From contig JAHBVR010000005.1 in the NCBI GenBank assembly GCA_019637395.1, positions 65,312-129,311 on the forward strand: 64,000 bases of DNA. The letters run 5' to 3'. The stretch's first letter is position 1. Each line of letters opens with the position of its first letter. Of the stretch, positions 7,017 to 63,381 are shown piece by piece. The notes beneath the pieces were generated by a model. That model was not told the DNA's origin. It ran no database searches and saw only the letters and a list, made by a program, of their open reading frames with translations. A program made the translations under genes and the position numbers. Source of the stretch: Vulcanimicrobiota bacterium (GTDB lineage: Bacteria > Vulcanimicrobiota > Xenobia > Xenobiales > JADMJV01).

Positions 7017-7306
7017 GTTGCGGGATTCGCAGCGAGGCATCCTCTGTCCTATTTTCTTGCCTGGCCCAATCGGCCGTATCAAAATGGCCGATCAGCCATC
7101 CAGGATCTGGTCCACTTTGCGGGCTGTCATTGAGCACCCTAAAGGATCCACTCATGAGCGCCCACCGGGATCCAGAGGATCGTTTTGCACCCCCATGCAA
7201 TCTTGGCGCCACCATGCAACCGAACTTCGTTGCACCCTACTTTGTCGAAAGTGAAATTGGCTCTCGGCCACCCATTATTTTTACCGAGTGTTGGGGAGTC
7301 CTGTTG

Positions 7307-8089: not shown

Positions 8090-8199
8090 CTTAAATTCTC
8101 CTTTATTTTACTAGATGCGATAACGGCCGAAACAGGGCCGCCGAGGTGGCGACCTGGCCCGAGCTCGGCTCGGGCGGTTGCTTGGAATCACGGCGCCCT

Positions 8200-9931: not shown

Positions 9932-10271
9932 ATCAATTGGTCAAATCCCCATACAGCCTGGAGATGAAGGCCGTGGCTTGACAAACAACAGAAATGCCAG
10001 GCGCGGGATCGGACTCGCAAGTTGGGTGCCCTAAATCGACAAAGCCTGTGGAAGCTGCCGTGCCTATGGAAAAATGCTGGGGCATTTTTCCACAGGCACT
10101 TGGATAACTTGCTCGCTTAGGCTCGCAAGTTACCCACAGCTCCCACAGGCACGACGACGATTACTATTGATAGATCTATATTTTATGGGGCTGGTGGCCG
10201 GGCTTCGCCCGGAACCGAGACGAACCCAGGGCCAGCACCGTGGGCGATAGCTGAGAGGCTGGCGCTTAGCG

Positions 10272-10306
10272 CCAGAACAAAGAAAAGCGGGCTCGCGGGC
10301 CCGCTT
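10272..10306 (-). terminator. rho-independent terminator downstream of the RHS-immunity operon
   Basis: Stem AAGCGGGC/GCCCGCTT with a 6-nt loop, followed on the minus strand by TTTTCTTTGTT. Confidence 0.55.
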
Positions 10307-10426
10307 AAAGATCGGCTTGGTTGAAAGACTTCCGGGTATTTCGACCCCGGCGGTCGAGGGTTCGTGGTTGGGGCTCACGCCCCAACCACGAACTCACTTT
10401 ACAGTGCCCAGAAACCCTGACGGTAT

Positions 10427-10798
10427 CTAGTCCGAAGTGCAAGGTTCGTCAAAGATCAGTGTAACAGCTTTCTGTTCCAACAAGTCTTGGATCTGCTCGC
10501 GTTTTGAGACTTCAAGTTCGACATAAGTCAACTCAATACCCGATTCGAGCTTGTCCTCCATCACTTCAATCAGCTTGCGCACGCCACAAAACACCATTCG
10601 AGCAGGCTTATCGTCACAGTGGGACGATCCCCACTCCAAGTCTTCGTGCTTCTTCCCAAGCGCAAGCGACTTGGCACTTGCCTCTTCTGAATTCTCCGCC
10701 TCAATCAAATGAATGTTCTCCCAAAGCGGAAACTTCTCTTGTCCTTCAAACTCAACCACATACAGGAGATGGGCACAGTACCACATCGCTTCCTCCAC
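10427..10798 (-). CDS. putative RHS-toxin immunity protein; may resemble the DUF4288 family
   Basis: A 123-aa acidic cytoplasmic protein encoded immediately 3' of the RHS gene. Its start abuts the RHS stop. This is the classical toxin-immunity arrangement. Confidence 0.55.
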   Translation of the reverse strand: MEEAMWYCAHLLYVVEFEGQEKFPLWENIHLIEAENSEEASAKSLALGKKHEDLEWGSSHCDDKPARMVFCGVRKLIEVMEDKLESGIELTYVELEVSKREQIQDLLEQKAVTLIFDEPCTSD

Positions 10799-19950: not shown

Positions 19951-21036
19951 TTACACTCCTGCATAAATGATGTAGTTCAGGACCATGGTGGGCTGAACGT
20001 TGTTATGAGATCCTCCACCACCGGTAGAGTTGCTGGAAGCGCCAGAACTAAAGTTCTGCATGACGTTGTTAGCCTGCGGTGCCACATAGGCTTGGAAATA
20101 GATGGGATTCCAAGGCAAAGTATGGCTATGACTGGGAATCTCTGACGTAATCAGCGTGTGAGATTGCGAACCCCCTGACTGGCCCATCGTCGTGCTCGTC
20201 AGCCGGGTGCTCAATCTCGCGGCGTTCGAGCCCCCCATATTGTCAAGACCGGCAACCACTCGGCCGCGGAGATCGGGAATTCCGAAAGTGCCCGCTCCCG
20301 ATCCGAAGGTCGTGCCGATGATCGAATAAAGAGAAGCGTAAGTTGCCGTGCTGACCAATTGGCCATAGCACATCAGCCATCCACTCGGAGCGGTTACGCC
20401 CGCGAACGGGATCACGGAGCCAATCGGGCCGATGGAACCACTGGCACCTGTGGGTCCGGTGGCGCCCGCAGGTCCCGTTGCTCCGGTTGCTCCATTTGAG
20501 CCAGGGCCACCAGTTGCACCAGTGGCGCCCGCAGGGCCTGTTGCACCGGTCGCTCCATTGGAGCCAGGGCTACCGGTTGCTCCAGTAGCACCGGTCGCGC
20601 CAGTTGCACCCGCCGCGCCCGCCGGCCCGACACCCCCCAGCATCTCGAAGCGACCGCCGCTCGCGTCGTTATAAACGGCGGCTACCATTTGATTGGCCAG
20701 AATATCTCCCGAGGAGAGGGCGCTTCCGCCCGCTTTCGTGAGAGATTTTGCCGTCAGGGCGCCGCCGGGACCGACCACCTGCAAGGTGGAAGCCCCGGTA
20801 TTGGCGTTGGCCGCCTTGAAAACCACCAACATGCCCTTCTTGTAGGCCGTGAACTGATTCTGGTTGTCAGGAGAACCGTCGAAGTTGACTTGATAGGCGT
20901 CAGCCGAGCCGACGTCATCGCGGTAGAAAGCCTGGCCGTCCTCCAGGTCGGCCAGAACCGGGAATAGTTGGGCTATGTGCTCGGCCTCGATTACATCGCC
21001 CGTATTGATTGTATTGTCTGATAATGGACTGGACAT
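19951..21036 (-). CDS. collagen-like (GxT/GAT repeat) phage tail-collar domain fibre protein
   Basis: Gly-X-Y tract [31 protein letters not shown]... is followed by [49 protein letters not shown]..., the phage tail-collar signature. AAGGAA RBS before the ATG at 21036. Confidence 0.75.
20412..20640. repeat. tandem 9-bp-periodic GC-rich DNA repeats encoding the collagen-like G-A-T tract
   Basis: Repeated GCACCGGT / GCGCCAGT / GCTCCAGT units are visible. Confidence 0.6.
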
Positions 21037-21163
21037 TTGGATTCCTTTCGGTTGCTCCCGAGGCAGCACGAAGCCAGACCCGGTGCGAATGAGATTTTTA
21101 GAACTAGAAAATGGGTCTACAAGGAGTCGGGGAGCTCAGGGGGGCTCCCGGCTACTTTCGGGC

Positions 21164-22426: not shown

Positions 22427-23101
22427 CTACCATCGGCTTCTATACCCCCTTACATCTACATGACAAAATCCGTCCAGCGGATAGAAACCAACGCCACCGT
22501 GGTCCCCAATCACCGCCTCACAAACCTTAAGCAGGGCTTCGGTGGAAATACCCGCTGCCTGAATGTCGGCCGCCAGCCCGTCGATATGAGTACTGTTGCT
22601 TGCCGCACCTTTTAGTGAGGCGTTATAGGCCGGCGGTCTATAAGCCGAGTTTATCGTGATCGGCGCACCACCCAGTTGGGTGCGGATCATCTCCAGTCGC
22701 CGCACCAACTCCGGCGACACACGCAAGAATGCGTAGGAGCTGTCGTGACACATGAATTCCCCCGCCGTGAAGTGTTCGCTGAGCCGGTCCGATGGTTTCG
22801 CCGCCAGCAGCGGCGCGGCCGTGTAGGCGCCGGTGGTGCCATACCGAGCCGCTTCGGCCTCGGACAGCACTGCTTTGGGAATCGACAGGCCGCTGGGGTA
22901 TTTCACTCCTTCGCCGGCGCCGGAAGCTCCCGGCCTGGGACCCTCGGGGAGACCCAGGAAGAACTTCTGCCGCGCGTCGTCTCGCCCGACACGCAGACCC
23001 AACTGTTCGGCCACCGTCATCAGCAACGGCAGTTGGGATTCTTCAATCTCGATCGGGCGCCGCCAATCTTCCGGGGGCGCAAACACTCGCCACTTATTCA
23101 T
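22427..23101 (-). CDS. peptidase M15-family (D-Ala-D-Ala carboxypeptidase / endolysin-like) protein
   Basis: SNSTHIDGLAADI and FCHVDVRG motifs (HxxxxxxD ... H zinc site), preceded by HFTAGEF. Confidence 0.7.
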   Translation of the reverse strand: MNKWRVFAPPEDWRRPIEIEESQLPLLMTVAEQLGLRVGRDDARQKFFLGLPEGPRPGASGAGEGVKYPSGLSIPKAVLSEAEAARYGTTGAYTAAPLLAAKPSDRLSEHFTAGEFMCHDSSYAFLRVSPELVRRLEMIRTQLGGAPITINSAYRPPAYNASLKGAASNSTHIDGLAADIQAAGISTEALLKVCEAVIGDHGGVGFYPLDGFCHVDVRGYRSRW

Positions 23102-29993: not shown

Positions 29994-30034
29994 CCCCCGC
30001 GTTGACTGAGCAGGGGCGCTGTCCTTTTTATTCG
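29994..30034 (+). terminator. rho-independent terminator
   Basis: AGCGCCCC ... GGGGCGCT stem followed by GTCCTTTTTATT. Confidence 0.5.
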
Positions 30035-30576
30035 ACGTGCATGACCAGAGGTGGGGGAGCGGGGGGTTTGCCGTGGATGAAAACACCGCCTTGCAGGAAC
30101 GGCTGGTCGGCGTCGATATCGTGCCAGCGCTGTAGGAATTCCTGGCGGGGTATGGAGCCCAGGCTGCCCAGGATCGAGGGATCTTCCAGGTAGACGTTGT
30201 GCTCGTCGATGCCCACCGCCACCATCCAGTGTCCGCTGTCCCAAATGTTGCTCCAGGGAGTCTGCAGTTGGTCCTCGTTGCGCCAGGCCTGCCCGGCCAC
30301 CATGACGGGAATGCCGTTTTCAATGGATTTTTGCAGGTCGTCCAGGGTCAGGTTCTGGCGAATCTCGGCCTGAAAGCCCAGCGAGCGGGCGGCTTCGGCC
30401 AGGCGTTCCGGCGGCGTCCCCTCCTGCGGATCGGCCTGGCAGAGCTCCATCAAGTCCTGCTCGAAGTGCTCCTCGCCATAGTAACCGAGAACCGCCTGCA
30501 GAGCGGTGGGTCCGCACGAGTAGTCGGTGGTCTGACGTACGTCGGGCAGACGCAGCAGGTTGGCGGGGAGCTTCAT
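30028..30576 (-). CDS. peptidase C39-like (papain-fold) domain protein
   Basis: TDYSCGPTALQAVLGYYG catalytic-Cys motif of Peptidase_C39_2. Confidence 0.6.
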   Translation of the reverse strand: MKLPANLLRLPDVRQTTDYSCGPTALQAVLGYYGEEHFEQDLMELCQADPQEGTPPERLAEAARSLGFQAEIRQNLTLDDLQKSIENGIPVMVAGQAWRNEDQLQTPWSNIWDSGHWMVAVGIDEHNVYLEDPSILGSLGSIPRQEFLQRWHDIDADQPFLQGGVFIHGKPPAPPPLVMHVE

Positions 30577-30625: not shown

Positions 30626-33052
30626 CTAGGGGTTATGGATGATGGTCGGGGCGCTGGTCCTGCCCACCAGCCGGCCGTTCACGAAGGCTTCCACTTCAAA
30701 GCGGTAGTCACCGGCTTTTTCCGGGAAGGGATAGGGATCCAGAGTCAGTTCGCGCAGTTCGCCGGGCGCCAGGCGGGTTCGGGGTAGAATCATCTCCTCC
30801 ACCGTTTTATCCGGCCGGGTGACCAGCATATGGAGTTCCACTTCGGCCTCCAGCTTGCTGTCCTGATTTTTTATGGCTATGCGGCCCTGGCGCAGGCGAT
30901 CGGTATTGGTGGGCGGGGCCATCTTCAAGGGTTCCATCATCAGGAACGGCTGCGGATCTTGAGGATTGGCCGCATAGGGGTCGCTGACCGCCTGCGGGCC
31001 CGGTTCGGTTTCGCGGGGTTCCCATTGGGCCTGGCTGGGCAGTGGCTCTTTGCTCAGAAATTGGGCGTAGGCGGCGTCGATCCGGTTGATATCTTCGGGT
31101 CCGCTGACCACGTAGGGGGTCAGGGCGATGAAGAGCGAGGTTTTTTTCTGCTCGTTGCGCAGTTCCCGGAACAAATTTTGTATCAAGGGAATGTCGCCCA
31201 GGATGGGTACCTTGCGGATGGTCTCGGTGGTGCGCCGGCTGATCAGGCCGCCGATGAGCAGAGTCTCGCCGTCCTTGAGGTTGACGTCGGTCTTGACGCG
31301 CCGGTTGGAAATCAACGGAATGACGTAACCGAAGCCGCCCAGGTTCTGGTTGAGGAATTCGGTGACTTCCTGGACTTCTTGTTCGAGTTCCAGGCGAATG
31401 GTCGAGCCCTGCGAGATATGCGGAGTGAAGGACAGATTGATGCCTACATCCTTGTAGTCGTAAGTGACCAGCGGCTGTCCGGTTTGCGAGAAGCGAGCGC
31501 CGGTGGCGAAGGGCACGACGTTGCCCACCTTCATTTCCGCTTTCTTGTGATCGGTGGCCACCAGGCGGGGCGAGGAGATCAGTTCGAAGTTGGTATTGGC
31601 CCGCTCACCGGTCAGAAAGCCGAAGAGGCTGGGAACCTGCACATCGCGCCCCCCCACGTTGACGGTCCGCGAACTGCCCCCGCTGGCGCCCACCAGGAAT
31701 TGCCCGGAGGTCAGGAAGGAGAGCAGTCCTTCCTCGCTGGCGCCGCCGTTAAAGCTGGCCACCGGTCCGCTGGTGTCGAAGAGTTGAAGTTTGGAGCCGG
31801 CGTTGAGCAGGTCGGTGAGACTGACCTCGGCCACCACCGCATGCACCAGGATCTGCTTGCGCTTGCGGTCCAGACTGGCCAGCAGGGAGCGAATACTCGG
31901 ATACTCGCTGGGACTGATATAGACGAGCACGGCGTTCAGTTCCGGGTCGGCGCCCACCCGCGCCCCTACGTAGACCAATTGGGCCGGGGAGCCCGGGGTG
32001 GAGCCGGTCACCGGCGTAGGAATCGGGGTCGTGGCCAGGCCGCCGGGAGTCGATGGGGGAGGGGTGTTGGCGGTGCCGACGGCGGTGGTATTGGCGTTGC
32101 CCGTGCTTGAACCGGCCGCCTGGCGGCCGCGCCGGCTTTCCTCTTCGTCCTGCGCGCGCTTGCGTTCCGTCAGCAGTTCCTGCACGATTTTGGCCACGTC
32201 CTCGGCCTTGCCTTGCTGCAATTTGTAGACGAAATAGCGGGGTTTTTCCACTGTCAGCGGAGCCGAGCGGGCCACGTCCAGAGAGGCTACCGTTTCGCGA
32301 ATCTCCTTCATTTGGGCGGGCGTGGCCTGCACCAGCAGAGCATTGGTGGGCGGGAAAGCCGTTACCAGGGGTTGGGAAGTTCCTGGCAAAGCCTGCGTCC
32401 GCTGCATCACGCTCTGCAGCACGGGAGCCATTTTTTCGGCCTCGGCGTATTGCAGGAAGATCGTTTCCATGCTGATCTTGGGCGTGGCCCGGTCGAGGGA
32501 GCGCACCAGCGCCGCCACTTGGCGCAGAACTTCGGGGGTATCCACCAGGACCAGCGCCTTGCCCAGAGCGTAAACCTGAGCGCCATTGGGATCGCTGATG
32601 TAGGGGCGAATGGCCGTCAGAACCTGGCTGGCATCGCCTTCTCGTAAGATGACGGCCATGCTGGAATTGCGGGAATCACGGCGCACATCGGCCAGCGGCA
32701 TGACCTGGTAAATTCCGCCGGACTGGCGCAGAGCGAAGCCGTTCTTGCTGAGCACGCCCTGGAAAACTTGCCACAGCTCTTCGGAGGTCAGTTGGGAGCT
32801 GGCCAGCAGCGTTACCTTGCCGGTTACACCCTCGTCCAGCACCACCGTGCGCCCCGTCAGTTCGGAGACAATGCGGGCCAGCACGCGGATATCCAGATTC
32901 TCATAATTCATGGAAATGGGACCGCGGCGCAGGGCGCGCTGAGCGTCCTGCTTGATCAGCGGTCCCCCGGGCTGGGGCGGGCTCTGGGGCGGTTGAGCCC
33001 AGACCAGAGTGCTGGCCAGGCCGCTCACCAGTAGACAAGTTTTCAATTTCAC
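30626..33052 (-). CDS. secretin (GspD/PilQ-type outer-membrane channel) with a ~150-aa C-terminal extension
   Basis: Signal peptide, N0/N-domains, and the secretin core (VPILGDIPLIQNLF...TSLFIALTPYVV). No other T2SS or T4P genes are adjacent. Confidence 0.8.
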   Translation of the reverse strand: MKLKTCLLVSGLASTLVWAQPPQSPPQPGGPLIKQDAQRALRRGPISMNYENLDIRVLARIVSELTGRTVVLDEGVTGKVTLLASSQLTSEELWQVFQGVLSKNGFALRQSGGIYQVMPLADVRRDSRNSSMAVILREGDASQVLTAIRPYISDPNGAQVYALGKALVLVDTPEVLRQVAALVRSLDRATPKISMETIFLQYAEAEKMAPVLQSVMQRTQALPGTSQPLVTAFPPTNALLVQATPAQMKEIRETVASLDVARSAPLTVEKPRYFVYKLQQGKAEDVAKIVQELLTERKRAQDEEESRRGRQAAGSSTGNANTTAVGTANTPPPSTPGGLATTPIPTPVTGSTPGSPAQLVYVGARVGADPELNAVLVYISPSEYPSIRSLLASLDRKRKQILVHAVVAEVSLTDLLNAGSKLQLFDTSGPVASFNGGASEEGLLSFLTSGQFLVGASGGSSRTVNVGGRDVQVPSLFGFLTGERANTNFELISSPRLVATDHKKAEMKVGNVVPFATGARFSQTGQPLVTYDYKDVGINLSFTPHISQGSTIRLELEQEVQEVTEFLNQNLGGFGYVIPLISNRRVKTDVNLKDGETLLIGGLISRRTTETIRKVPILGDIPLIQNLFRELRNEQKKTSLFIALTPYVVSGPEDINRIDAAYAQFLSKEPLPSQAQWEPRETEPGPQAVSDPYAANPQDPQPFLMMEPLKMAPPTNTDRLRQGRIAIKNQDSKLEAEVELHMLVTRPDKTVEEMILPRTRLAPGELRELTLDPYPFPEKAGDYRFEVEAFVNGRLVGRTSAPTIIHNP

Positions 33053-52164: not shown

Positions 52165-52487
52165 ATGGAGATTCCACCGATACTCCAGGAAAGACTTCCC
52201 ATGGACGAACTGCTGGCCTATTGCCGGCGTCACCCTGTCATCGAAGGACTCTATGTTTTTGGTTCGGTGCTGAATGACTGGCGCCCCGACAGCGATGTGG
52301 ATCTGCTGGTGCGTTTTCCCGCGGAGCGATTTCCCGACTATTCGGACATTTGCGATATGCGTGACGAGCTGGCGGCACTCATCGGACGCGAAGTCGATCT
52401 GATTCCCACCGATTGGGTCGACAATCCTTCGTGAAAGCGCACATCCGTAAGACCAGGGTGCTCGTCTATGGCGCCTGAGGAACGTGA
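52165..52487 (+). pseudogene. MNT-type minimal nucleotidyltransferase (antitoxin-like) with a 3' frameshift and no HEPN partner
   Basis: YVFGSVLNDWRPDSDVDLLVRF ... REVDLIP. The ORF then stops (..VDNPS*). The next frame continues IRKTRVLVYGA*, matching the usual MNT C-terminus. Confidence 0.45.
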
Positions 52488-52599
52488 CCCCGCCTTGCTC
52501 TAACCCTCTTGGGGAGCGATCTCTCTACGAATTTTAAAAGACATAGAACGGACAAACTGGTGTAAACACACGGTCCAGCTCTGGAGCTAAGCTGCGGCC

Positions 52600-53511
52600 A
52601 TGAGTCAGGGGCAGACCGACTACGATCTCCACTGGAAGATCGCCATTACCCAATACTTCAGGGCCTTTCTGGAATTCTTCTTTCCCCGCATCGCCGCCGA
52701 AATCGACTGGGGGCGCGCCTGGGCGCCATTGGACAAAGAACTCCTCCCCGGCAGAGGGGATGACGAGGTCGGGGCCCGGGAGGCCGACCTGCTTTTTCGT
52801 GTCTATCGGAATACCGGTGAAGAGAGTTGGGTCCTGATTCATCTCGAGATTCAGGCCACCCGGCAGGCTCTTCAGGTTTTCGAGGAGCGCGTGTGGGTCT
52901 ATGCTGCTCGGACCCGGCTGCGCTACCACAGGAAGGTGTGCAGCCTGGCGATTCTGGCCGACCTCAGCCCCTCCTGGAGGCCCCATTGTTTCTTGGAGGA
53001 ACTGTGGGGGTGCCGAATGAGTCTGTCTTTTCCCACCGTCAAGCTACTCGACCTGGAGAAGACACTGGGCCCCCTTTCCGACAACCCCTTTTCCTGGATC
53101 GTGCGCTTCCATTTGGCGGCCAAGCGCTCCAAGGCCGGCGGGGTCCAGCGACGCAGCTACAAACGGGCCTACCTCCTGGCTTTCTGGAGAGCCGTGCGCC
53201 AGGGACTGCTCGACCGCAAGGATGTCAACAAGCTCAGGACTATCGAGAATATGATCGACGGCCTCTTGTCACTCAGCCACGAGAACGATAAGCTTTTCAG
53301 GAAAGAGCTGGAACGAGATGAGGAGATTGGCCAGATGAAAAAGCAGATGCCCCGGCTGACGATGTTTGAACGCTGGGCCCGCGAGGATGCCCTCGAGGAA
53401 GGGCGGCGATGGGCCGAGCAGGAGCGGCAGCGGGCAGACGAGGAGCGGCAGCGGGCCGAGCGTTTCGCTCAGAAGCTGCGTGAGTTGGGAGTCGATCCAG
53501 GTAGCCTGTAG
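52600..53511 (+). CDS. Rpn/YhgA-like PD-(D/E)XK nuclease-family protein (putative transposase_31 / DUF4351-type)
   Basis: DYDLHWKIAITQYFRAFLEFFFP...WVLIHLEIQ...RVWVYAARTRLRY matches from memory the conserved N-terminus of this family. Confidence 0.5.
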   Translation: MSQGQTDYDLHWKIAITQYFRAFLEFFFPRIAAEIDWGRAWAPLDKELLPGRGDDEVGAREADLLFRVYRNTGEESWVLIHLEIQATRQALQVFEERVWVYAARTRLRYHRKVCSLAILADLSPSWRPHCFLEELWGCRMSLSFPTVKLLDLEKTLGPLSDNPFSWIVRFHLAAKRSKAGGVQRRSYKRAYLLAFWRAVRQGLLDRKDVNKLRTIENMIDGLLSLSHENDKLFRKELERDEEIGQMKKQMPRLTMFERWAREDALEEGRRWAEQERQRADEERQRAERFAQKLRELGVDPGSL

Positions 53512-55199: not shown

Positions 55200-55940
55200 T
55201 TAGACGTCTTTGAGGTTGCGCGATTTTCTGACCTTCTGAATAAAGGGACCGTTGCCCAGAGCGCGGCTCCGCCCCAGCAAGTAAACCAGCGAGGCGCCGT
55301 AGTCGGGATCGCTATGACGAGTGATCCGTTGGGCCTCGGAGGTATGGCCACCGGACATCAGGTATTGGTATTGCACCCAACAGGCCATCCCCTCGGTGAG
55401 GGCGCGGTCTTGTTGAATACAGGCCCGGCTCTCCCAGGCGTGGGTCAGCTCGTGAGCCAGATGGGAACCGCTCTCCACCTCGGTTTCCCCGGTCAGCAAA
55501 TAGACCATCTCCGGATTATAGGGCCGGTAAAAAGCCACCACATCCACGGCCCGCCCGCTTTCGTTGAATTTGGTGCGCAGTTCGTCGTAGTCGACCAGTT
55601 GGATCGGCGGCAAAGTCTTGGCTTCGGCCCCCAGCAGGCCGGCCATGTAGCTCTGCACCTGGGTGGCCAGCGCGGCCACCTTGCCTTTATCGAACATGCC
55701 GGTCTTCAGGCAGCTGGGGCAGATGAAACGGCCGTCTCGGTAGGCGGGCCTGGAACTGGGGTTAGCGCACAGCGAACAATTGGGCAGGGAGGAACGGCAC
55801 TTGGAGCAGACCTGGTAGAGGCCGTCGCGATAGCTGAAAGGCTGCAGGTCCACATTGCCCTTGCAGTAGCGGCAGGCTTGCTGCGCCAGGCCCAGCCCGC
55901 CCAAGAAAAGCACCAGAAAAAAGAAAAGAGACCGCATCAT
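55200..55940 (-). CDS. secreted Cys-rich (LIM-like zinc-finger) HExxH protein, DA1-like peptidase candidate
   Basis: Signal peptide. CxxC x4 cluster (CRYCKG..CSKCRSS..CSLC..CPSC). HELTHAW plus downstream EGMACWVQYQY. Confidence 0.45.
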   Translation of the reverse strand: MMRSLFFFLVLFLGGLGLAQQACRYCKGNVDLQPFSYRDGLYQVCSKCRSSLPNCSLCANPSSRPAYRDGRFICPSCLKTGMFDKGKVAALATQVQSYMAGLLGAEAKTLPPIQLVDYDELRTKFNESGRAVDVVAFYRPYNPEMVYLLTGETEVESGSHLAHELTHAWESRACIQQDRALTEGMACWVQYQYLMSGGHTSEAQRITRHSDPDYGASLVYLLGRSRALGNGPFIQKVRKSRNLKDV

Positions 55941-55950
55941 CTCGCGGCGG

Positions 55951-57387
55951 CTAGAAGTCGCGCTCGATGGCGTAAGAGCTGCAACGGATGGCCCCTTCCA
56001 GCTTGGAAATCGAACCCATCTGCAGGGGAATGACCTCGTAGTCGTTGCCCTTGTAGATGTTTTCGGCCATTTTGTCGAGCACCTCGCAACCGTATTGGGG
56101 CAGGTAGACTTTCTTGGTCTCGGTGCCGTCGGCGGCCGGGTAGCGTTCCATAATACAGTTGTTGTAGGTAAGGTAGGGCACGCTCCAGGTGGTGCGCAGG
56201 CCCATCATGGCCGGCATCCGCTCGATCTCGTAGCCGGCCTCTTTGAGTTCGGCGGCCAGGGCGTCGTAGTTGGCCTGGTTCTGAGCGTTGTCCTCGGCGG
56301 CGATCAGCTTCCCGATCAGGTCCTCGCCGCTGGTGATGCCGGCGTTGAGGGCCATCTCCCGATTGCTGGCGGCCCGTTCCTCAGGGCTCAAAGCCTTGAG
56401 GGCCCGGATGGCCAGGCTCGGATCGCCCACCAGGAATTTTTTGTCGCCGATGGGCGTGGCGCACATGTCGATGTGGAAAGCCGGTTGGTCGTGGTCGCGG
56501 GCGAGCACCAGCACGGGCCGGCCGAATTCACTTTCAAAGACCAGCTGGGGGAGTTCTTCCCACATCTTGTCTTTGTCGTCGGCCGGCTGGCCGCTGGCTT
56601 TGGTGTAAAATTCCTCGATTTCTTGGGCCCGGGCCGGGTCCTGAGCCAGTTCCTGCAGGCGAGCGCGGGTGTGGCGAATGGAATCGCTGCCCACGAAGAT
56701 CTGCTTGGAATTGCTGAGGACATTGCCGCCGTCGATGCGCAGCGCCGGGTGTGCCTGGGAGGTGATGCTCTCACCATGCACCTGGGCCAGGGTCGGGGCG
56801 ATGGTGTTGTCGCCGGCTCCGGGCCAGTAAGTGCGATCCTGGATGAGCAGTTTGGTGTGGCCGTCTTCGGCCCGCACCGGCAGCATGGAATCGCGGATCC
56901 AGATGGACATCTTGTCGGCCTGGGCGGGTACCACCGAGACCCGGCCGGGATCGGTGCCGCTATCCTGGACTAATTGGTTGACGTCATCGATGCCGCGCTG
57001 GTCGGCGCAGACCACCGTGAAGTGGGTCTCCGGCATGTGCGTAAAGAGCTGATTCCAGACGCCCAACAGGCCGTTGTGGGTTTCCTCGGGCAGGGGTTTG
57101 TCGAATTCGACGTTACCCAGTTGTAGAGCCATTTCCTTGATCTTGCCGGTGCTATCCGGGAAGATCAAGCCGCCTACGCCAAAGAGAGGAGCCGCCGGTT
57201 CGGCTGCTTTGAAAGCCACTTGCTCCTGACCGCTCTTCAGAGAGGCGGCCGAATACCGGGTGGTCCGCGTATCTCGTGAGATCTGCGCGGTGTCGGCCGG
57301 CAACCCCTCTGCCGCCGGTGCCGGCGCCTGGGCCAGCGGACGGGCGGGCGCCAGGGATCGAATTGGAGTGTGACTTTGAATGAGCAT
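55951..57387 (-). CDS. agmatine deiminase / porphyranase-type peptidylarginine deiminase-family protein with a ~170-aa N-terminal extension
   Basis: IWIRDSMLP, GGNVLSN, and a C-terminal GAIRCSS (catalytic Cys). Confidence 0.65.
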   Translation of the reverse strand: MLIQSHTPIRSLAPARPLAQAPAPAAEGLPADTAQISRDTRTTRYSAASLKSGQEQVAFKAAEPAAPLFGVGGLIFPDSTGKIKEMALQLGNVEFDKPLPEETHNGLLGVWNQLFTHMPETHFTVVCADQRGIDDVNQLVQDSGTDPGRVSVVPAQADKMSIWIRDSMLPVRAEDGHTKLLIQDRTYWPGAGDNTIAPTLAQVHGESITSQAHPALRIDGGNVLSNSKQIFVGSDSIRHTRARLQELAQDPARAQEIEEFYTKASGQPADDKDKMWEELPQLVFESEFGRPVLVLARDHDQPAFHIDMCATPIGDKKFLVGDPSLAIRALKALSPEERAASNREMALNAGITSGEDLIGKLIAAEDNAQNQANYDALAAELKEAGYEIERMPAMMGLRTTWSVPYLTYNNCIMERYPAADGTETKKVYLPQYGCEVLDKMAENIYKGNDYEVIPLQMGSISKLEGAIRCSSYAIERDF

Positions 57388-57432
57388 GCTACTACTATGG
57401 CGCTTGCGCCACGCCCTGGCTTGAACAGGAAG

Positions 57433-57942
57433 TTACATTCTGAGCGGGTGGCCGACCACCACCAGAGGGACCCCGTTATCTTTGGTGGACAACGTCACCT
57501 TGATTTTGTTCGTCTGTACATCCACGGTAAAATCCGTTACATCGCGGGCCACCACTCGGTAGCCGGCCGCCAAATTCGCATCCGTCTTGCGCAGTTCGTG
57601 GCTGTTCACGTCCAGCCAATACTCCACGGGCAAAGTGGGCAGGGTGATGGGAATAGCCGAACCCGTTTCCCGGGTCGTGCGTCGCCAGGTCAGCTGGCCG
57701 GGGGCGGTGGGATGCTGCAGACCACTTCCCACGGCCGGCGCGGTCCAGGCAAAGCAAACGGCCATTTCTCGTAGAATCTCGCTCATGGCCAGCGCTCCCT
57801 GGCGTTGGGCGGCGGTTCGTTCCAGGGTTTTTCGGTGAGCGCGAAATCCCATAACCAGAGCCCGACTGACCATGAGCACAAAGAGACCGAGCAATCCGGT
57901 GACAAAGACCACCTCCAGCAAAGTCATGGCTCGCCGCTTCAT
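57433..57942 (-). CDS. type II secretion / type IV pilus pseudopilin (prepilin-type N-terminal domain)
   Basis: MKRRAMTLLEVVFVTGLLGLFVLMV: leader followed by a hydrophobic helix with Glu at +5. Confidence 0.55.
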   Translation of the reverse strand: MKRRAMTLLEVVFVTGLLGLFVLMVSRALVMGFRAHRKTLERTAAQRQGALAMSEILREMAVCFAWTAPAVGSGLQHPTAPGQLTWRRTTRETGSAIPITLPTLPVEYWLDVNSHELRKTDANLAAGYRVVARDVTDFTVDVQTNKIKVTLSTKDNGVPLVVVGHPLRM

Positions 57943-58409
57943 AGATCGACGTCCCATATGAAGAGATGCATGAGCTGGCGCCCGAACGGGACCATGGGCG
58001 CGGCCAGTTCGCGGCGCGCCAGGAGCTTGTTGTCGGTCGAGTAGATGAGCCCGCGAGCGTGGATCTGTTTGCTCGGGTTGGGCTCTTCTTCTTTCCAGAT
58101 CAGGAACCCCTGGGTTTCGGTGGCATCGGCCCAATAGATCAGAGGAGTGGTTCCGATGCAGTCGGGACCATAGTTCAATTCCTGCGAGCGAGCAAAAAAG
58201 ATGCCTGCCTGGGCCATCGACTGAGCTTGCTGGGCCCGCTGCATGGTCAGACCGAAGCGGCTATCCTGATCCAGAAAATAGAGCAGAGTCAGGCCCATAA
58301 CGAAAAGAAAAACGGTCAAAAACAGCGAGAGCATCAAGGCGATGCCCCGCTCCTTGCCGGTATACGCCCCCGAATTGCGCATCCATGCATCTTCTGACTT
58401 GGCAAACAA
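57939..58409 (-). CDS. pseudopilin-like protein (the start is uncertain)
   Basis: Contains a single hydrophobic segment (ALMLSLFLTVFLFVMGLTLLYF). Confidence 0.4.
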   Translation of the reverse strand: MFAKSEDAWMRNSGAYTGKERGIALMLSLFLTVFLFVMGLTLLYFLDQDSRFGLTMQRAQQAQSMAQAGIFFARSQELNYGPDCIGTTPLIYWADATETQGFLIWKEEEPNPSKQIHARGLIYSTDNKLLARRELAAPMVPFGRQLMHLFIWDVDL

Positions 58410-58459
58410 AGACCTGTCACCGCCCAGGGATGGTCCGGCGAGCGGTAGAATTTGGGCAC

Positions 58460-59065
58460 ATGCGTCTCCACATCGCGACTCTGGCCCTGGCGTTGGTCGG
58501 TTGTAGCAGCGGCTCCGGACCTTCCTCCAAGCCTGGGAAGTCCGGCGCCCCGTCTACGCCCCGCCCCCAGGCGGCCGAATTCAATATGGCCGGCGGGGGC
58601 GTGGGCAGCGCCGCGGGAGTCCCAGGCCCGTCGGGGGGGTCCGGCACGATTCCCGAGCAAAGCGACCCGGGTTCGAACACCCCGTCGCAAGCCGGGTCCG
58701 CCGCTGCCAGCCCCCTTCGCCGGCCTCCCATCGAGCCGGGATTGTGGAGAATGCCCGGTTACCAACCCAGTCTGGTGGTAGTCAATCCAGGCTCTGACAC
58801 GCTGGCCCGCGGTTATAACTTGTATATGCAAAATTGTGCCATGTGCCACGGCGCGGACCTGCGCGGTGAATTCTCGGCGTCGAACGTGCCGGTGCGGGAT
58901 TTGACCCGGTTCAAGGATTACAAGTTCGGCAGTACCGATCAGGCGATCTATCGCTCCATCGTTTACGGCATTCCCAAAACGGCCATGGGAAGTTATCAGC
59001 ACGCCCTGAAGCCTCAACAGGTGTGGGACCTGATCAATTTTATGAAATCCAAGCGAACTGACTGA
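58460..59065 (+). CDS. lipoprotein c-type cytochrome (class I)
   Basis: Lipobox LALALVGCSS. CAMCHG heme motif. Distal Met region. Confidence 0.7.
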   Translation: MRLHIATLALALVGCSSGSGPSSKPGKSGAPSTPRPQAAEFNMAGGGVGSAAGVPGPSGGSGTIPEQSDPGSNTPSQAGSAAASPLRRPPIEPGLWRMPGYQPSLVVVNPGSDTLARGYNLYMQNCAMCHGADLRGEFSASNVPVRDLTRFKDYKFGSTDQAIYRSIVYGIPKTAMGSYQHALKPQQVWDLINFMKSKRTD

Positions 59066-59067
59066 AC

Positions 59068-60006
59068 GTGAGTAAAAAGATTTTTTTACGTTTCGGCCTG
59101 CTCTTTGGCGGGTTATTCGGGGGTGTGGTCGCCGGGGAAACCGCCTTGCGTATTCTGAAACCACCGGCTTCTTCAGGCGGTATACAGCAGACGCGGTTCC
59201 CGGTGGGACAGTTGACGGATTACACTCCGGACGATGAGTGCGGCTATCTCCCGAAAATTAACGGCGAGGGATATGGCGCCCAGGGCTGTCTCTATAATGA
59301 CTATAAGCTGGAGAAGACTCCGGGACGCCGTCGGGTCCTGTTCGTAGGGGATTCGGTCACTCATCGGGGGCGCCTCATCACCCCGCTACGGTCGCTTTAC
59401 GGGGAGGAAAAATTCGAGTATTGGAACGCCGGCGTGGAAAGTTTCAATACCGCCCAGGAAGTCGTGCTTTACCGCCGCTACAACTACCTCATCAAGCCCG
59501 ACCTGGTGGTGCTGACTTTTCATAACAACGATTTTATGCAGACTCCGCTGGTCTACCGGGAAAAAGGCAAGCTGCAACTGCTGACCCCTTTGCATGACCG
59601 CAATCACATCAACACCTGGCTCTTTGAAAACAGTTACATCTATCGATGTTACGTGGGACGCAGTTGGCGCGCCGACCAGGAAGAAAAGGCCGTGCGCGTT
59701 CGCGAGAATCTGCGGGAACTGGACAGGCTGGTCAGGGATGGCGGCGGTCAGTTGCGGGTGGTGCTTCTGCCTCTGATGAAACCGCTTAAAGACTACGACC
59801 CGGGTGAAAATTGGTCCCGCAATCACGCCCTGGCCATCGTCAAAGAACTCAAGCTAAACAGCATCGACCTGACCCCCGCGTTGGAGGAGATTCTTCCCGA
59901 GAACCAGCCTGTCGAAGAAACGGCCGGGGATTATTGGCATCCCAGCCAGTGGGCCGCCGACCGTCTGGCCAGGACCCTGTATCAGCAAGATATCTTAGCC
60001 CCTTAA
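59068..60006 (+). CDS. SGNH/GDSL-like hydrolase
   Basis: N-terminal TM/signal sequence, then a VLFVGDSVT (GDS) block. Confidence 0.5.
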   Translation: MSKKIFLRFGLLFGGLFGGVVAGETALRILKPPASSGGIQQTRFPVGQLTDYTPDDECGYLPKINGEGYGAQGCLYNDYKLEKTPGRRRVLFVGDSVTHRGRLITPLRSLYGEEKFEYWNAGVESFNTAQEVVLYRRYNYLIKPDLVVLTFHNNDFMQTPLVYREKGKLQLLTPLHDRNHINTWLFENSYIYRCYVGRSWRADQEEKAVRVRENLRELDRLVRDGGGQLRVVLLPLMKPLKDYDPGENWSRNHALAIVKELKLNSIDLTPALEEILPENQPVEETAGDYWHPSQWAADRLARTLYQQDILAP

Positions 60007-60692
60007 AAAGACTTGATATAGGCGGTTAGCGCCTGCAGATCTTCTTCGGGCATAGCATTGATGTCCGGATAAGCATCCATGGCCACAGTATAGCCGGCCA
60101 CTTCGAAAGCCAGCGGGTCGCGAACCGATTCTCGAATGTACTCGTCGATGGTCAGGGCGGGACCGGGCAGGCCGGAGGCATTGCGATCGTTCATTCCCTG
60201 GGTAAGGGTGGCCATGGAGAGGTTGGGTGCGCTGGGGTTGGGAGTGGTGGTCCCGGTAGCGTGACACGAATTGCAGGCGTAGGCGGCGAACAGCGCGGCT
60301 CCGTTGGGTCGGACAAATAGCCCGCGCAAGGAGCTGGTCGTTTCATAGGGCTTGGGGCCTTTAACGGTCACGATGACCCAGGAACTATCGGAATCGAAGT
60401 TGGCAATTTCGGTGTCCACCCGAAACTCGTAGTCCGGATTGCCATAGTAGGTATTATAGCCACCGCTGTATGTGGGGGGCGTCGAGTCAGCCAGCAATTC
60501 GTCCAGCTTGGCCTTCACCAGGGCGTCCCGCACGACCACATACTGGGTCCGGCGAGGGTAACCGGAACCGGCCACCAGGATGGTCATGACGCCGCCCGCG
60601 GCCACGAACAAAAGCCCCATGGCCAGGACCAGCTCCATCATGGTCACCGCTCGAATTCGTTCGCGCCAACTCATCATTTCATATCCTAACAA
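60003..60692 (-). CDS. prepilin-type N-terminal domain protein fused to a C-terminal class I cytochrome c domain
   Basis: RAVTMMELVLAMGLLFVAAGG is a pilin-like N-terminus. YACNSCHATG is a CxxCH motif. The downstream region is Met-containing. Confidence 0.6.
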   Translation of the reverse strand: MLGYEMMSWRERIRAVTMMELVLAMGLLFVAAGGVMTILVAGSGYPRRTQYVVVRDALVKAKLDELLADSTPPTYSGGYNTYYGNPDYEFRVDTEIANFDSDSSWVIVTVKGPKPYETTSSLRGLFVRPNGAALFAAYACNSCHATGTTTPNPSAPNLSMATLTQGMNDRNASGLPGPALTIDEYIRESVRDPLAFEVAGYTVAMDAYPDINAMPEEDLQALTAYIKSF

Positions 60693-60701
60693 AAGATAAG
60701 G

Positions 60702-61790
60702 CTAGGCGCCAATGTCCGAAAGCATCCCGTAGACCGGCATGAACAGGCCCACGAAGAAGAAAGCGGTGACCACACCGAGCCCGCAAATCATGATCGGTTC
60801 CAGCAAGGTGACGATCGAGCGAATGGTCATATCGACTTCCTGTTCCAGAATGTTGCTCATGGACCCCAGCAGGGTATCCAGGTTGCCGACTTCCTGGCCC
60901 ACCGTGGCCACGGTGGTCAGCATGCTCGGGAAGTAGCTGACGTTGGCCATGCTCTCGGCGAAATCGCCTTCCTCGAGCAGGGCGGCGTGGAATTTTTTCA
61001 GATAGGAGCGATGGGTCCGGAAAGGCGCGGTGTGCGCGATCATCTGCACGGCTTTGACCAGGCTGACCCCTTCCTTGACCAGCGAGCCGAGAATATCGCA
61101 AAACTGGGCGCCGAGCACAATGCCGATCCAGCGTTCAAAGAGTGGAATCTGTAAGGCGCGGGCAAAGGCGCGCTCCTGGATTTCCGTCCAATAGCTCTTC
61201 AGGATAATGGCGCAGGTGAGCAAGCTGATGAAGAAGAGCGGGTGGTTGCAAATATTGACTACCTGGATGACGATCTGCGTGATTTGCGGCAGTTCCACGT
61301 TCATGCCGGAATACATGTCGATGAAGCGCGGCATGACGAACCTGACGCAGCCGTAGAGAATGACCGAGGCCACCACCACCGTCAGGAACGGCGCGGTCAT
61401 GGCCGATTTGACCTGGCGAACCAGATGGTCATTGCGTTCCATCAGCATGCCGGCGCGTCGCAAGCGTGAGGCCATGTCACCGGTGGCTTCGCCGGCCTGG
61501 ACGAAGAGTACGCAATAGGCGGGGAACACTTGAGGATACTGAGCGAAAGCCTGGGAAAGCTTCCAGCCCTGGCGGGTGACCTTATATTCGATATCCTCCA
61601 GGGTCTTTTCGAAGACAACGTCATCCATCTGGGTGCGCACGGCGTTGAAGACCTCGGTCATACCCACGCCGGATTCCAGCATGATGGCCATCAATTGCAG
61701 GGCGACGGAGACGGTTTTTCGGCCAGGATTCGGCGGTTTAGGCTTGATTCTGGCCCACAGCCCTGGTTTCGTCTGCTGCTTAACCCCCAT
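60702..61790 (-). CDS. GspF/PilC-family inner-membrane platform protein
   Basis: 362 aa with two GspF-like repeats and 3 TM segments. Confidence 0.7.
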   Translation of the reverse strand: MGVKQQTKPGLWARIKPKPPNPGRKTVSVALQLMAIMLESGVGMTEVFNAVRTQMDDVVFEKTLEDIEYKVTRQGWKLSQAFAQYPQVFPAYCVLFVQAGEATGDMASRLRRAGMLMERNDHLVRQVKSAMTAPFLTVVVASVILYGCVRFVMPRFIDMYSGMNVELPQITQIVIQVVNICNHPLFFISLLTCAIILKSYWTEIQERAFARALQIPLFERWIGIVLGAQFCDILGSLVKEGVSLVKAVQMIAHTAPFRTHRSYLKKFHAALLEEGDFAESMANVSYFPSMLTTVATVGQEVGNLDTLLGSMSNILEQEVDMTIRSIVTLLEPIMICGLGVVTAFFFVGLFMPVYGMLSDIGA

Positions 61791-61905
61791 GGCCGCCTTT
61801 TCGCTGCCTGAGTAGATCCGCCCTACTATCTCCTAGGACTAAAGTCTCAGGAGGCACACAAAAGAAAGCCCCCGGCCGTCAGACCGGGGGCTTTCTTGGT
61901 GCCGC

Positions 61906-63381
61906 TTAGAAAACGATCTTGGTGCGGTGGAATTCGCGCTCGCCTTTGGCGTTGGGAGCCACGTAGGCGGCGTAGGCGGTGCCGTCGGGGCGGAAGATGT
62001 CGCCCAGGTCGGGGTTGGTCTTGTCGGTGAAAAGCACTTCGCCGTCGGCGGCCAGCAGGCGGGCCCCCTTTTCGGCTTCCGCGATGGTCGAGTTGGTCAG
62101 TCCCACCAGGCCGAAAGCCGGCTGGTCGACAAGACTGCTCATTTTGACACCGGCCAGCTGGCCGGCGTCGTTGCCGATGAAGAATTCCTGGCGAACCGGT
62201 TCGGCGTTGAACAGGCGGGCGCCGTTTTGGCGGCTGGGCGGAGGGGCGTCGGCGTCCATCAGGCCGCGCTTCACCATGACGTTCTTGATCAGCTCACCGC
62301 GAGCGCCGCCGTTGAACTGGGCGTCGGCGGCGGCCATGTTGGCGGCCATCTCGTGGAAAGTGGTCTCGGAGGCTTTGGGAGACAGCTCGACCTGTCCCAC
62401 CAGCAGCTTCCAGCACTCTTCACCGGCGGCCATCAAAGCTTCCTTGGGAGCCATGCCGGCGGCGCGGTTGGCGTCGGAGATGCCGTCGATGACGTCGTAG
62501 AAAGCTCCCGACCAGAGGCGCGAGAAGTCGTGCACTTCACGTCCCAGGTGGTTTTCGTCACCGTGCTCGGGCAGGCTGGCCGGATCGGCGTAGACGAACT
62601 CGTTCTTGGAGGTGCGGATGCCACCCTCACGGCCCAGGGCGTGGCCGAAGGCTTCGCCCATGTCGGAGAGCATGTTGCGCCTGGTGGAGAGGTCGCCGCC
62701 TTCGGTCTGAGCGACCAGGGCTTCGACGGCCTTCTCGTTGCCCAGGGTCATCAGCATCGACAGGCAGTCGCCGAAGGCTTCGTGATAAGCGCCGGTTTCC
62801 GAACCGGAGCCCTCCATGAAGCCGGGGCGTTGCGAATCGAGGATGGCGTGGCCGGCTTCGTGGGAGGAGACTTCCCCGGACGCGGCCGTGCTGGTGGTCT
62901 TGTAGTGGAAGAAGTGCAGACCCTTGAACTGGCGGGCGTAGAAAGCGTTGGGCCAATCGCCGGTCTCGGGAGAGACCTTGATCTGCTTGTCGCCGAAAGC
63001 CCACTCGATGTTTTTGCCGGTCAGTTCGCCGAGCACCTGATTATACTTGTTGACCGTCTCGGCCACGGCGCCGAAGGCGTTGGCGCCGTTGAAGTTCTTA
63101 TCGCTGTTGTCGGCATAGACGAAGTTGCCGTCAGCGTTGGGGGTCAGCTTGTAGGCGGGGTCAGGTCTCAGGCCGACCAGATTGCCCATCACGAAGATGG
63201 CCTTCTTGTTCTCCAGCACCACCGAGTCGGTGGAGGGCTTGCCACCGTTGGCGCTCACATTGGGGATATCGACGGTGTCGTTGGGCAGGGCGTCGTGGTC
63301 CTGCGGATTGTTGCTAAACTTTACGGTGTTGCCCTGGGGGGCGGCCAAGCGGGGGCCGTGGTTGGCGCAGCAGATATTCAT
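61906..63381 (-). CDS. thermolysin-like (gluzincin) zinc metallopeptidase
   Basis: HEAGHAILD plus a downstream YHEAFGD (third-ligand Glu motif). AGGAG RBS before the ATG at 63381. Confidence 0.6.
   Translation of the reverse strand: MNICCANHGPRLAAPQGNTVKFSNNPQDHDALPNDTVDIPNVSANGGKPSTDSVVLENKKAIFVMGNLVGLRPDPAYKLTPNADGNFVYADNSDKNFNGANAFGAVAETVNKYNQVLGELTGKNIEWAFGDKQIKVSPETGDWPNAFYARQFKGLHFFHYKTTSTAASGEVSSHEAGHAILDSQRPGFMEGSGSETGAYHEAFGDCLSMLMTLGNEKAVEALVAQTEGGDLSTRRNMLSDMGEAFGHALGREGGIRTSKNEFVYADPASLPEHGDENHLGREVHDFSRLWSGAFYDVIDGISDANRAAGMAPKEALMAAGEECWKLLVGQVELSPKASETTFHEMAANMAAADAQFNGGARGELIKNVMVKRGLMDADAPPPSRQNGARLFNAEPVRQEFFIGNDAGQLAGVKMSSLVDQPAFGLVGLTNSTIAEAEKGARLLAADGEVLFTDKTNPDLGDIFRPDGTAYAAYVAPNAKGEREFHRTKIVF

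Follow-up and report, generated by a model that had tools for sequence, protein, structure and literature searches.

A conserved gene joining a pilin module to a class I cytochrome c, and its predicted type IV filament-like module in Vulcanimicrobiota

In a 64,000-nucleotide (nt) stretch of a Vulcanimicrobiota bacterium genome (NCBI GenBank assembly GCA_019637395.1, contig JAHBVR010000005.1, positions 65,312 to 129,311 of the forward strand; hereafter the window, numbered from its first letter), a minus-strand gene at positions 60003 to 60677 joins an N-terminal pilin module to a C-terminal class I c-type cytochrome domain. The fusion gene is real, conserved, and so far unannotated. Its product is, we infer, a modular minor pilin that belongs to a type IV filament-like module of up to five parts: a GspK-like pilin (K-like), a GspJ-like pilin (J-like), the GspI-like pilin-cytochrome c fusion itself, a membrane-tethered cytochrome c, and a PilC-like platform protein. 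We regard the architecture of the protein and its link to pilus machinery, taken alone, as highly probable. The probability that the whole chain operates as proposed, from prepilin processing through a K-J-I complex on the platform to electron exchange with the partner cytochrome, is put at roughly 0.55.

The mechanically called open reading frame (ORF) runs from a TTG at 60692 to 60003 on the minus strand and encodes 229 amino acids (aa), MLGYEMMSWRERIRAVTMMELVLAMGLLFVAAGG... An ATG at 60677 has AGGA 7 nt upstream of it and follows the stop of the PilC-like gene by 24 nt, so the 224-aa product is the likelier one, and this ATG is most likely the translation start. NCBI also places the start at ATG 60677, in a 224-aa, 100% identical "hypothetical protein" (P0001) from the Candidatus Eremiobacteraeota metagenome-assembled genome (MAG) GCA_026129085.1. 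The limits assigned to the gene (224 aa plus stop) draw on the ORF list, the ATG with its Shine-Dalgarno sequence, P0001, and the alignments of the close family (A1) and of 36 sequences (A2). Three parts follow one another in the product: a predicted class III (prepilin) leader, MMSWRERIRA (60648 to 60677, minus strand), recognized from the motif statistics of the family; a GspI-like pilin module consisting of an alpha1 helix and a four-stranded sheet (60312 to 60647, minus strand), delimited with AlphaFold2 (AF2) and Foldseek; and the class I c-type cytochrome domain (60006 to 60311, minus strand), identified with the Pfam models PF00034, PF13442, and PF14495. The N terminus reads MMSWRERIRA/VTMMELV, with the predicted cut (slash) between Ala and Val and with Glu at position +5 of the mature protein. 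The A/xTLxE pattern is likewise seen in the J-like pilin encoded alongside.

The same three-part organization recurs in other genomes, where the initial interpretation of the window, made from its letters and ORF translations (the sequence-only reading), had proposed that it be sought. A word-indexed search returned 17 relatives of the fusion protein with identities of 47 to 100%, among which the approximately 60 N-terminal residues are nearly invariant. When 1.84 billion cluster representatives were searched with a profile, 863 matched at an E value of ≤0.001; of the 150 matches listed, most are ordinary cytochrome c domains, and about 35 span the pilin module too. All of the fetched pilin-module matches carry CxxCH, with the sole exception of P0026, a 127-aa protein that diverges from the family beyond its first 80 or so residues. 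A homolog search with a broad alignment added at least P0054 and P0090. Approximately 36 relatives share the leader, the pilin module, and the cytochrome c domain (alignment A2), and the motifs of the family persist in relatives with as little as 21 to 30% identity. An artefactual fusion made during assembly is rejected, since the architecture is repeated in about 36 clusters whose assemblies and sources are independent.

Leader statistics were taken from the 28 leaders of A2 that gene callers had left intact. Position −1 is Gly in 26 of the 28 and Ala in the other 2, position +2 is Ser or Thr in every case, position +5 is Glu in every case, and position +1 is L, V, F, or M. The leaders are 4 to 19 aa long, with net charges of 0 to +6. 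This is the canonical class III pattern, in which a short, basic leader ending in Gly or Ala precedes (L/V/F/M)(S/T)xxE, and it is also seen in distant members, such as KRG/LTFLE, KG/FSLAE, and RG/MTLAE (A2).

The modeled fold of the N-terminal module is that of a pilin. When the pilin module was modeled alone from 29 diverse sequences, AF2 returned a predicted local distance difference test score (pLDDT) of 90.1, with a continuous 51-residue helix (residues 18 to 68) followed by four strands (residues 80 to 126), the lollipop shape of pilins. The top Foldseek match in the PDB is XcpV, the GspI of Pseudomonas (5bw0_F; probability of 1.00, target-normalized template modeling [TM] score of 0.66, alignment of 90 of the 91 residues of the target, E = 0.019), and EpsI of Vibrio was also matched (2ret_G; probability of 0.94, TM score of 0.69, E = 0.53). 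With E values of 0.019 and 0.53, neither match reaches formal significance, and the module is therefore named GspI-like and is not classed as a GspI. Searching PDB sequences with a profile of the pilin module yielded no significant match, Geobacter PilA-N (E = 1.4) being the closest among pilin-like proteins, and the curated gspI model TIGR01707 had no match in the window fusion protein at E values up to 0.1. The leader statistics, with Glu at +5 in 28 of 28 cases, and the pilin fold of the model bear out the sequence-only reading of the 229-aa ORF as having a prepilin-like N terminus.

The C-terminal part is, by its sequence, a canonical His/Met class I cytochrome c, as the sequence-only reading had it from CNSCH and a later Met. 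The heme motif CNSCH occupies ORF residues 140 to 144 (encoded at 60261 to 60275), and the predicted distal ligand, Met205, lies 61 residues past His144. Among the 36 sequences of A2, C140, C143, and H144 of the CxxCH are invariant, and Met205 is retained in at least 90%. Pfam places the cytochrome c domain at ORF residues 130 to 228, with a score of 24.4 against a cutoff of 21.3 for PF00034 and a marginal 27.2 against a cutoff of 27 for PF13442; both models are matched by all 18 close relatives. Among solved proteins, the nearest in sequence is the diheme protein 7zs0 (E = 9e-10); next come the cytochrome c domain of caa3 oxidase subunit II (1w2l) and PsbV.

Within the close family (A1), identity is 87% in alpha1, 61% in the sheet, and 55% in the cytochrome domain. 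The far better conservation of alpha1 fits a helix that serves as an assembly interface. Seven variants (P0044, P0054, P0060, P0090, P0143, P0035, and P0047) include some with a proline-rich linker of at most about 40 residues, the proline-rich stretches either separating the pilin module from the heme module or lying at the C terminus, and P0044 has two CxxCH motifs. The insertion of linkers and the doubling of CxxCH suggest that the pilin and heme modules behave as separable units.

The genes around the fusion supply the remaining parts of the predicted module. Directly upstream lies the PilC/GspF-like platform paralog (60702 to 61790, minus strand), whose 362-aa product has two T2SSF domains (PF00482, E = 1.3e-41, in two stretches) and which is probably cotranscribed with the fusion gene. 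A promoter and terminator scan of positions 57300 to 62000 found no promoter, and the terminator-like hairpins were all intragenic. The PilC, GspF, HofC, and ComGB equivalog models of NCBIfam all score far below their cutoffs against this protein (PilC, 181 versus 700 bits; GspF, 170 versus 424 bits; the others, 176 versus 700, 149 versus 401, and 121 versus 240 bits), and the matches begin at profile positions 60 to 80, indicating a short N terminus. Its orthologs beside distant pilin-cytochromes are 44% (locus L011) and 30% (L009) identical to it.

The partner gene (58460 to 59065, plus strand) encodes a 201-aa lipoprotein class I cytochrome c with the lipobox LVGC and the heme motif CAMCH (PF00034, E = 4.7e-11); its closest family matches are of the CcoP/CcoO type, and it is presumably a membrane-tethered electron carrier. 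The partner cytochrome domains of the window and L011 are 40% identical and have the common motif YxYG..AIYR..YG.P..AMG, and orthologous domains occur in or beside the pilin operon at L010, L011, L017/L018, L027, L028, and L029. The two pilin-like genes overlap in an ATGA junction that combines the J-like start with the K-like stop. The K-like gene (57939 to 58382, minus strand) encodes a PilX/GspK-like minor pilin of 147 aa with KERG/IALMLSL, lacking Glu at +5, and has subthreshold hidden Markov model (HMM) matches to PilX_N (E = 0.02 to 0.1) and to the GspK N terminus (E = 2.8e-4 in the L003 ortholog to 0.26). The J-like gene (57433 to 57942, minus strand) encodes a GspJ/ComGF-like minor pilin of 169 aa with KRRA/MTLLEVV, again with subthreshold matches (ComGF, E = 0.008, reaching 2.6e-4 in L009; N_methyl, E = 0.005 to 0.05). 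Glu5 is present in the fusion and in the J-like pilin and is missing from the K-like pilin. In type II secretion systems (T2SS) and type IV pili (T4P), GspI/J and PilV/W have Glu5, and GspK and PilX do not; the trio is therefore read as GspI/J/K-like or PilV/W/X-like. Both the two pseudopilins and the lipoprotein cytochrome c had already been picked out in the sequence-only reading, and they stand.

Between the fusion and the lipoprotein cytochrome c lies a plus-strand gene (59068 to 60006) for a 312-aa SGNH/GDSL-like protein with a weak Pfam match. It is codirectional with the cytochrome gene, is convergent with the fusion gene, and overlaps the latter by 4 nt at its 3' end. Its absence from L008 suggests that it is probably a lineage-specific passenger.

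The strongest evidence for the module is the gene context across distant loci. In the order of the window type, the PilC-like gene leads into the fusion gene, and these are followed by the SGNH-like gene and the lipoprotein cytochrome c gene, both pointing the opposite way, and then by the K-like and J-like genes. In L017/L018, a PilC-like gene and an oppositely oriented lipoprotein cytochrome c gene precede a K-like, J-like, fusion series. In L011, the oppositely oriented lipoprotein cytochrome c gene precedes the series (K)-J-fusion-PilC-like, and L009 has K-like, J-like, fusion, and PilC-like genes in a row. The order in L027 is fusion, lipoprotein cytochrome c, K-like, and J-like; L010 has K-like, a 561-aa cytochrome c with the same C-terminal domain, J-like, and fusion genes; and L012 has K-like, J-like, and fusion genes. 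In L028, minus-strand genes of 170 and 246 aa (J/K-like) precede a cytochrome c gene and the fusion gene, with a T2SSF gene 4.5 kb away, and in L029, an oppositely oriented cytochrome c gene is followed by genes of 236 and 205 aa (K/J-like) and then by the fusion gene; in these two loci, the J- and K-like assignments rest on position and size. With those two counted on that basis, K-like and J-like genes are present in 9 of 9 gene orders. The partner cytochrome c occurs in 7 of the 9, and the PilC-like gene is adjacent or close in 5, with 3 of the remaining contigs ending nearby. Locus L027 came from a metagenome scan with alignment A5, which returned three short loci. Among close relatives, the entire neighborhood is syntenic, which proves little because the housekeeping genes are syntenic as well.

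Duplication of the module points in the same direction as its rearrangement. An alignment of PilC-like proteins was scanned against one genome per GTDB species, and the PilC-like clade was found only in MAGs with Vulcanimicrobiota titles and under two uninformative titles (isolate SZAS-1 "EREM-KAN-1" and MAG_50). Vulcanimicrobiota is the current NCBI name of Eremiobacterota. Two of the scanned genomes have two PilC-like paralogs each, 85 to 87% and 42 to 43% identical to that of the window. The less similar paralog belongs to a second complete module (L017, positions 5941 to 9243, and L018, positions 6001 to 9236, in the same genomes as L013 and L014), in the order PilC-like, divergent lipoprotein cytochrome c, K-like, J-like, and pilin-cytochrome c. 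That all five parts were duplicated together argues that they work jointly. The sequence-only reading had called the PilC/GspF-like gene an orphan, which holds insofar as no ATPase gene neighbors it; its orthologs and its co-duplication indicate that it is a dedicated part of the module, not a stray gene. The fusion that this reading had proposed is confirmed, and it is refined to a minor, tip-type, GspI-like pseudopilin in a K-J-I set, as opposed to a filament-forming major pilin.

Under the interpretation that we favor, the three pilin-like proteins would be inserted in the inner membrane and have their leaders cut by a prepilin peptidase, and the K-J-I set would assemble on the PilC-like platform, as do GspI-J-K or PilV-W-X, to give a tip complex or a priming complex. 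The heme domain would thereby be held on a stalk above the inner membrane and would be projected further if the type IV ATPase and major pilin of the cell extend the complex. There it would exchange electrons with the partner lipoprotein cytochrome c and with an outer partner not encoded nearby. Leader cleavage, heme attachment, formation of the K-J-I complex, and use of the platform are all predicted steps, and a role in electron transfer is suggested by the conserved His/Met ligands and the conserved partner cytochrome c. A cultured member of the phylum is a diderm that makes type IV pili and performs pilus-based phototaxis, and it encodes pilB-pilT-pilC, pilD, pilQ, pilM, and a Tad system (PMC9758169), so a prepilin peptidase and motors are available in the lineage.

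Several observations weigh against this interpretation. The fusion protein of the window matches neither PF07963 nor TIGR02532, the N-terminal methylation models, and PF07963 (N_methyl) is matched by 7 of 18 family members, with a best E value of 0.011 and below its 21.2-bit cutoff. At −1, the window copy carries Ala in place of Gly; Ala at this position is common to the J-like pilins of the same lineage and hence looks like a lineage habit, not a defect. The HMM assignments of the K-like and J-like pilins are both subthreshold, and no Foldseek E value is below 0.001, including that of XcpV (0.019). The full-length AF2 model is poor (pLDDT of 58.8), leaving the cytochrome domain with no usable model, and a Foldseek search with it returned only noise. 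Within 10 kb of the window-type loci, there is no ATPase, major pilin, PilM/N/O, or prepilin peptidase gene, and the only ATPase genes near any module are two PilT-sized T2SSE genes about 5 kb away in L011. Nor is a respiratory enzyme or an obvious redox partner encoded near the window-type loci. A single heme on a nonconductive stalk is unable to wire electrons along a filament. All of the support is computational and derives from metagenome assemblies. Every family member that carries a source name is annotated only as "hypothetical protein" or "cytochrome c," probably because the curated HMMs miss the leader motif. One member, on a 4-kb MAG contig, bears the label "Proteobacteria bacterium," which is not relied on for taxonomy.

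A more ambitious version of the favored interpretation, which we consider improbable, would have the K-J-I(cytochrome) complex extended by the pilus motor and pulled back by the retraction ATPase, yielding a heme-tipped pilus or pseudopilus in which the heme is a mobile electron shuttle. The partner lipoprotein cytochrome c would then load or unload the heme at the membrane, and the converse step would take place at the outer membrane or, outside the cell, on minerals, humics, or a neighboring cell. If true, it would be a mechanical, not conductive, route of long-range electron transfer and a natural cytochrome-bearing pilin.

The heme domain could instead be a nonredox accessory on an ordinary type IV pilus, a structural, sensing, or adhesive tip module engaged, for example, in redox or ligand sensing for pilus-driven taxis or in mineral binding. 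The precedent is TfcP of Myxococcus xanthus cluster_1 (Herfurth et al. 2022, PMC8833165), a monoheme cytochrome c that is likewise encoded in a minor-pilin operon, in its case with PilY1, and that stabilizes PilY1 with no electron transfer, which also counts against the interpretation that we favor. TfcP is soluble and resides in the periplasm; it has a type I signal peptide, ligation by His and Cys, a potential close to −310 mV, and an extension at the C terminus that is charged. It does not form part of the pilus, is restricted to Myxococcales, and uses its heme only to stabilize the protein (PMC8833165). In the family described here, by contrast, the cytochrome is fused to a pilin, the canonical CxxCH and distal Met are conserved, no C-terminal extension is present, and an orthologous second class I cytochrome c accompanies it in 7 of the 9 gene orders, as expected of an electron-transfer pair. 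A TfcP ortholog is rejected because ligand, signal peptide, and architecture all differ, and the module has no PilY1-like gene. That modular pilins as a rule present binding modules at the tip of the pilus (PMC8179133), that the phototaxis of the phylum's isolate is driven by type IV pili (PMC9758169), and that respiratory genes are missing nearby do speak for a nonredox accessory; taken together, we judge this possibility unlikely.

There are two further explanations. One holds that K-J-I and the PilC-like protein are part of a reduced machine resembling type II secretion, a piston in which the heme domain docks cargo, either the lipoprotein cytochrome c or the flanking enzymes, for passage across the outer membrane. 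In Shewanella, the lipoprotein cytochromes MtrC and OmcA require the T2SS to reach the cell surface, and the Geobacter PilA-N/C pseudopilus exports cytochrome nanowires. The window contains a GspD-type secretin gene, the cultured relative is a diderm, and genes for gluzincin-like and deiminase-fold proteins flank the module in close relatives. These flanking enzymes, however, have no recognizable signal peptide and are absent from the distant modules, the secretin lies 27 kb away and is unlinked in other loci, no GspE, GspG, GspC, GspL, or GspM gene occurs among the scanned ORFs of the window or near any module, and the conserved functional heme site on a pilin is left unexplained. We therefore hold a secretion piston to be rather improbable. 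The other explanation is that the N-terminal hydrophobic segment is a plain Sec signal anchor, the protein a simple membrane-anchored cytochrome c, and its pilin-like neighbors a coincidence. Membrane-tethered class I cytochromes are common, the curated prepilin HMMs are subthreshold, the window copy has Ala at −1, and VAG/S at residue 42 reads in principle as a signal-peptidase I site. Conservation of Glu at +5, Ser/Thr at +2, and Gly/Ala at −1 at 21 to 30% identity, a model with a single 51-residue helix packed on the sheet and a GspI match, and a linkage to two pilin-like genes that outlasts nine rearrangements and a whole-module duplication are all at odds with it. The sequence-only reading had named a plain anchor with no pilus link as the finding that would count against it; on the conserved class III motif, the GspI-like fold, and the linkage to pilin genes at nine loci, the plain anchor is rejected as very improbable, and the pilin interpretation survives.

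The modular pilins, such as Streptococcus sanguinis PilB and PilC (Raynaud et al. 2021, PMC8179133), offer the closest concept for the fusion. They, too, combine a small N-terminal pilin module with a C-terminal functional domain through a short or proline-rich linker, and they are expected at the tip. The graft in the present family differs in being a heme c redox domain, and no cytochrome c appears among the 264 architectures of Dataset S1 in that survey (PMC8179133), which relied on the IPR012902/N_methyl signature, for which the leader of the fusion family is too divergent. The best structural matches of the pilin module, XcpV and EpsI, belong to the GspI-GspJ-GspK tip complex (XcpV/W/X and EpsI/J/K; PDB 5BW0 and 2RET), which the module also resembles in a putative J-like protein with Glu5, a putative K-like protein without it, and a co-encoded platform of the GspF/PilC family. 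It differs from a T2SS in having no GspG, GspH, GspE, GspC, GspL, or GspM and no linked secretin, in the size of the K-like protein (147 aa, against about 330 aa for GspK), and in the extra cytochrome domain of about 100 aa borne by its I subunit.

Other systems resemble the module in part. Cytochrome c_y and the Gram-positive lipoprotein cytochromes c551/c550 carry a class I His/Met domain on an N-terminal membrane anchor, but the anchors are Sec or lipid anchors, with no pilin fold with Glu5 and no linkage to pilin or PilC genes. Type IV machinery is tied to extracellular electron transfer in the e-pili and cytochrome nanowires of Geobacter and in the T2SS-dependent surface cytochromes of Shewanella; those systems use separate pilins and multiheme cytochromes, whereas in the present family one heme domain is built covalently into a minor pilin. 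In the bindosome of Sulfolobus, functional proteins that are not filament subunits have class III signal peptides and depend on the PilC-like membrane protein BasF and on three small pilin-like proteins, BasABC (Zolghadr et al. 2011, PMC3047682). The bindosome is archaeal, has sugar-binding proteins as its cargo, and has its own ATPase, BasE (PMC3047682). The likeness is one of logic only. No fusion of a pilin or pseudopilin with a cytochrome was found in the full-text literature searched, whose coverage leaves out most subscription journals.

Pilins and c-type cytochromes have so far been treated as separate, rival players in extracellular electron transfer. Their natural and conserved fusion, which comes with a platform protein, tip-type partners, and a partner cytochrome of its own, is a testable case of whether the machinery of type IV filaments can place or shift a redox center. 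It would add redox cofactors to the binding and hydrolytic modules known from modular pilins and would add a physiological trait to the Eremiobacterota, an abundant and barely cultured soil phylum known for phototrophy and the oxidation of trace gases. Should the heme turn out to have a structural or sensory role, the module would still be, after TfcP, the second independent example of a cytochrome recruited to pilus biology.

The GspD-type secretin gene of the window (30626 to 33052, minus strand) encodes 808 aa with an N0 domain, three Secretin_N domains, and a Secretin domain, and it is followed by a gene for a C39-family cysteine peptidase-like protein (30028 to 30576, minus strand). No other T2SS or T4P genes are found around it, it is the only related gene of the window outside the module, and GspE, G, C, L, and M are absent from the scanned ORFs of the window and its flanks. 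The secretin is a possible outer-membrane conduit. A canonical T2SS or type IVa pilus operon is rejected on the absence of the core genes, only F-like and I/J/K-like genes occurring together.

Other genes beside the modules have distinctive features of their own. The minus-strand gene at 61906 to 63381 encodes a 491-aa gluzincin-like protein with HEAGH...EAFGD and a weak M36 match (E = 0.011), and that at 55951 to 57387 (minus strand) encodes a 478-aa deiminase-fold protein with a weak PAD_porph match and the C-terminal motif GAIRCSS; as noted above, neither has a recognizable signal peptide, and the pair flanks the module in all close relatives and at no distant module. Kept beside the deiminase-fold gene in relatives is a gene for a 246-aa secreted protein (55200 to 55940, minus strand) with a Cys-rich N terminus (three CxxC), a zinc-peptidase-like HELTH motif, and weak DA1-like and BSP matches. 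In L011, minus-strand positions 6319 to 7698 and 10224 to 12503 hold a gene for a 459-aa proline-rich protein, whose C terminus is putatively PilZ-like, and the T2SSE genes.

Elsewhere in the window, a 2,217-aa RHS-repeat protein with an N-terminal DUF6531, a polymorphic toxin architecture, is encoded at 10798 to 17451 (minus strand). An IS21-family element at 7307 to 9774 (minus strand) consists of a 524-aa transposase (rve and Mu-transposase C-terminal domains) followed by a 260-aa IstB ATPase. The 372-aa protein encoded at 19951 to 21069 (minus strand) combines collagen repeats with a phage tail collar domain and ends in a Gp10-like C terminus, and with the nearby M15 peptidase gene (22427 to 23101) may represent a prophage or tailocin remnant. 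Between the genes for argininosuccinate synthase and ThiF, plus-strand positions 52165 to 53511 encode an 89-aa nucleotidyltransferase (NTP_transf_2/Polbeta) and a 303-aa protein; both genes are absent from that position in L001, L003, and L008, suggesting a small insertion.

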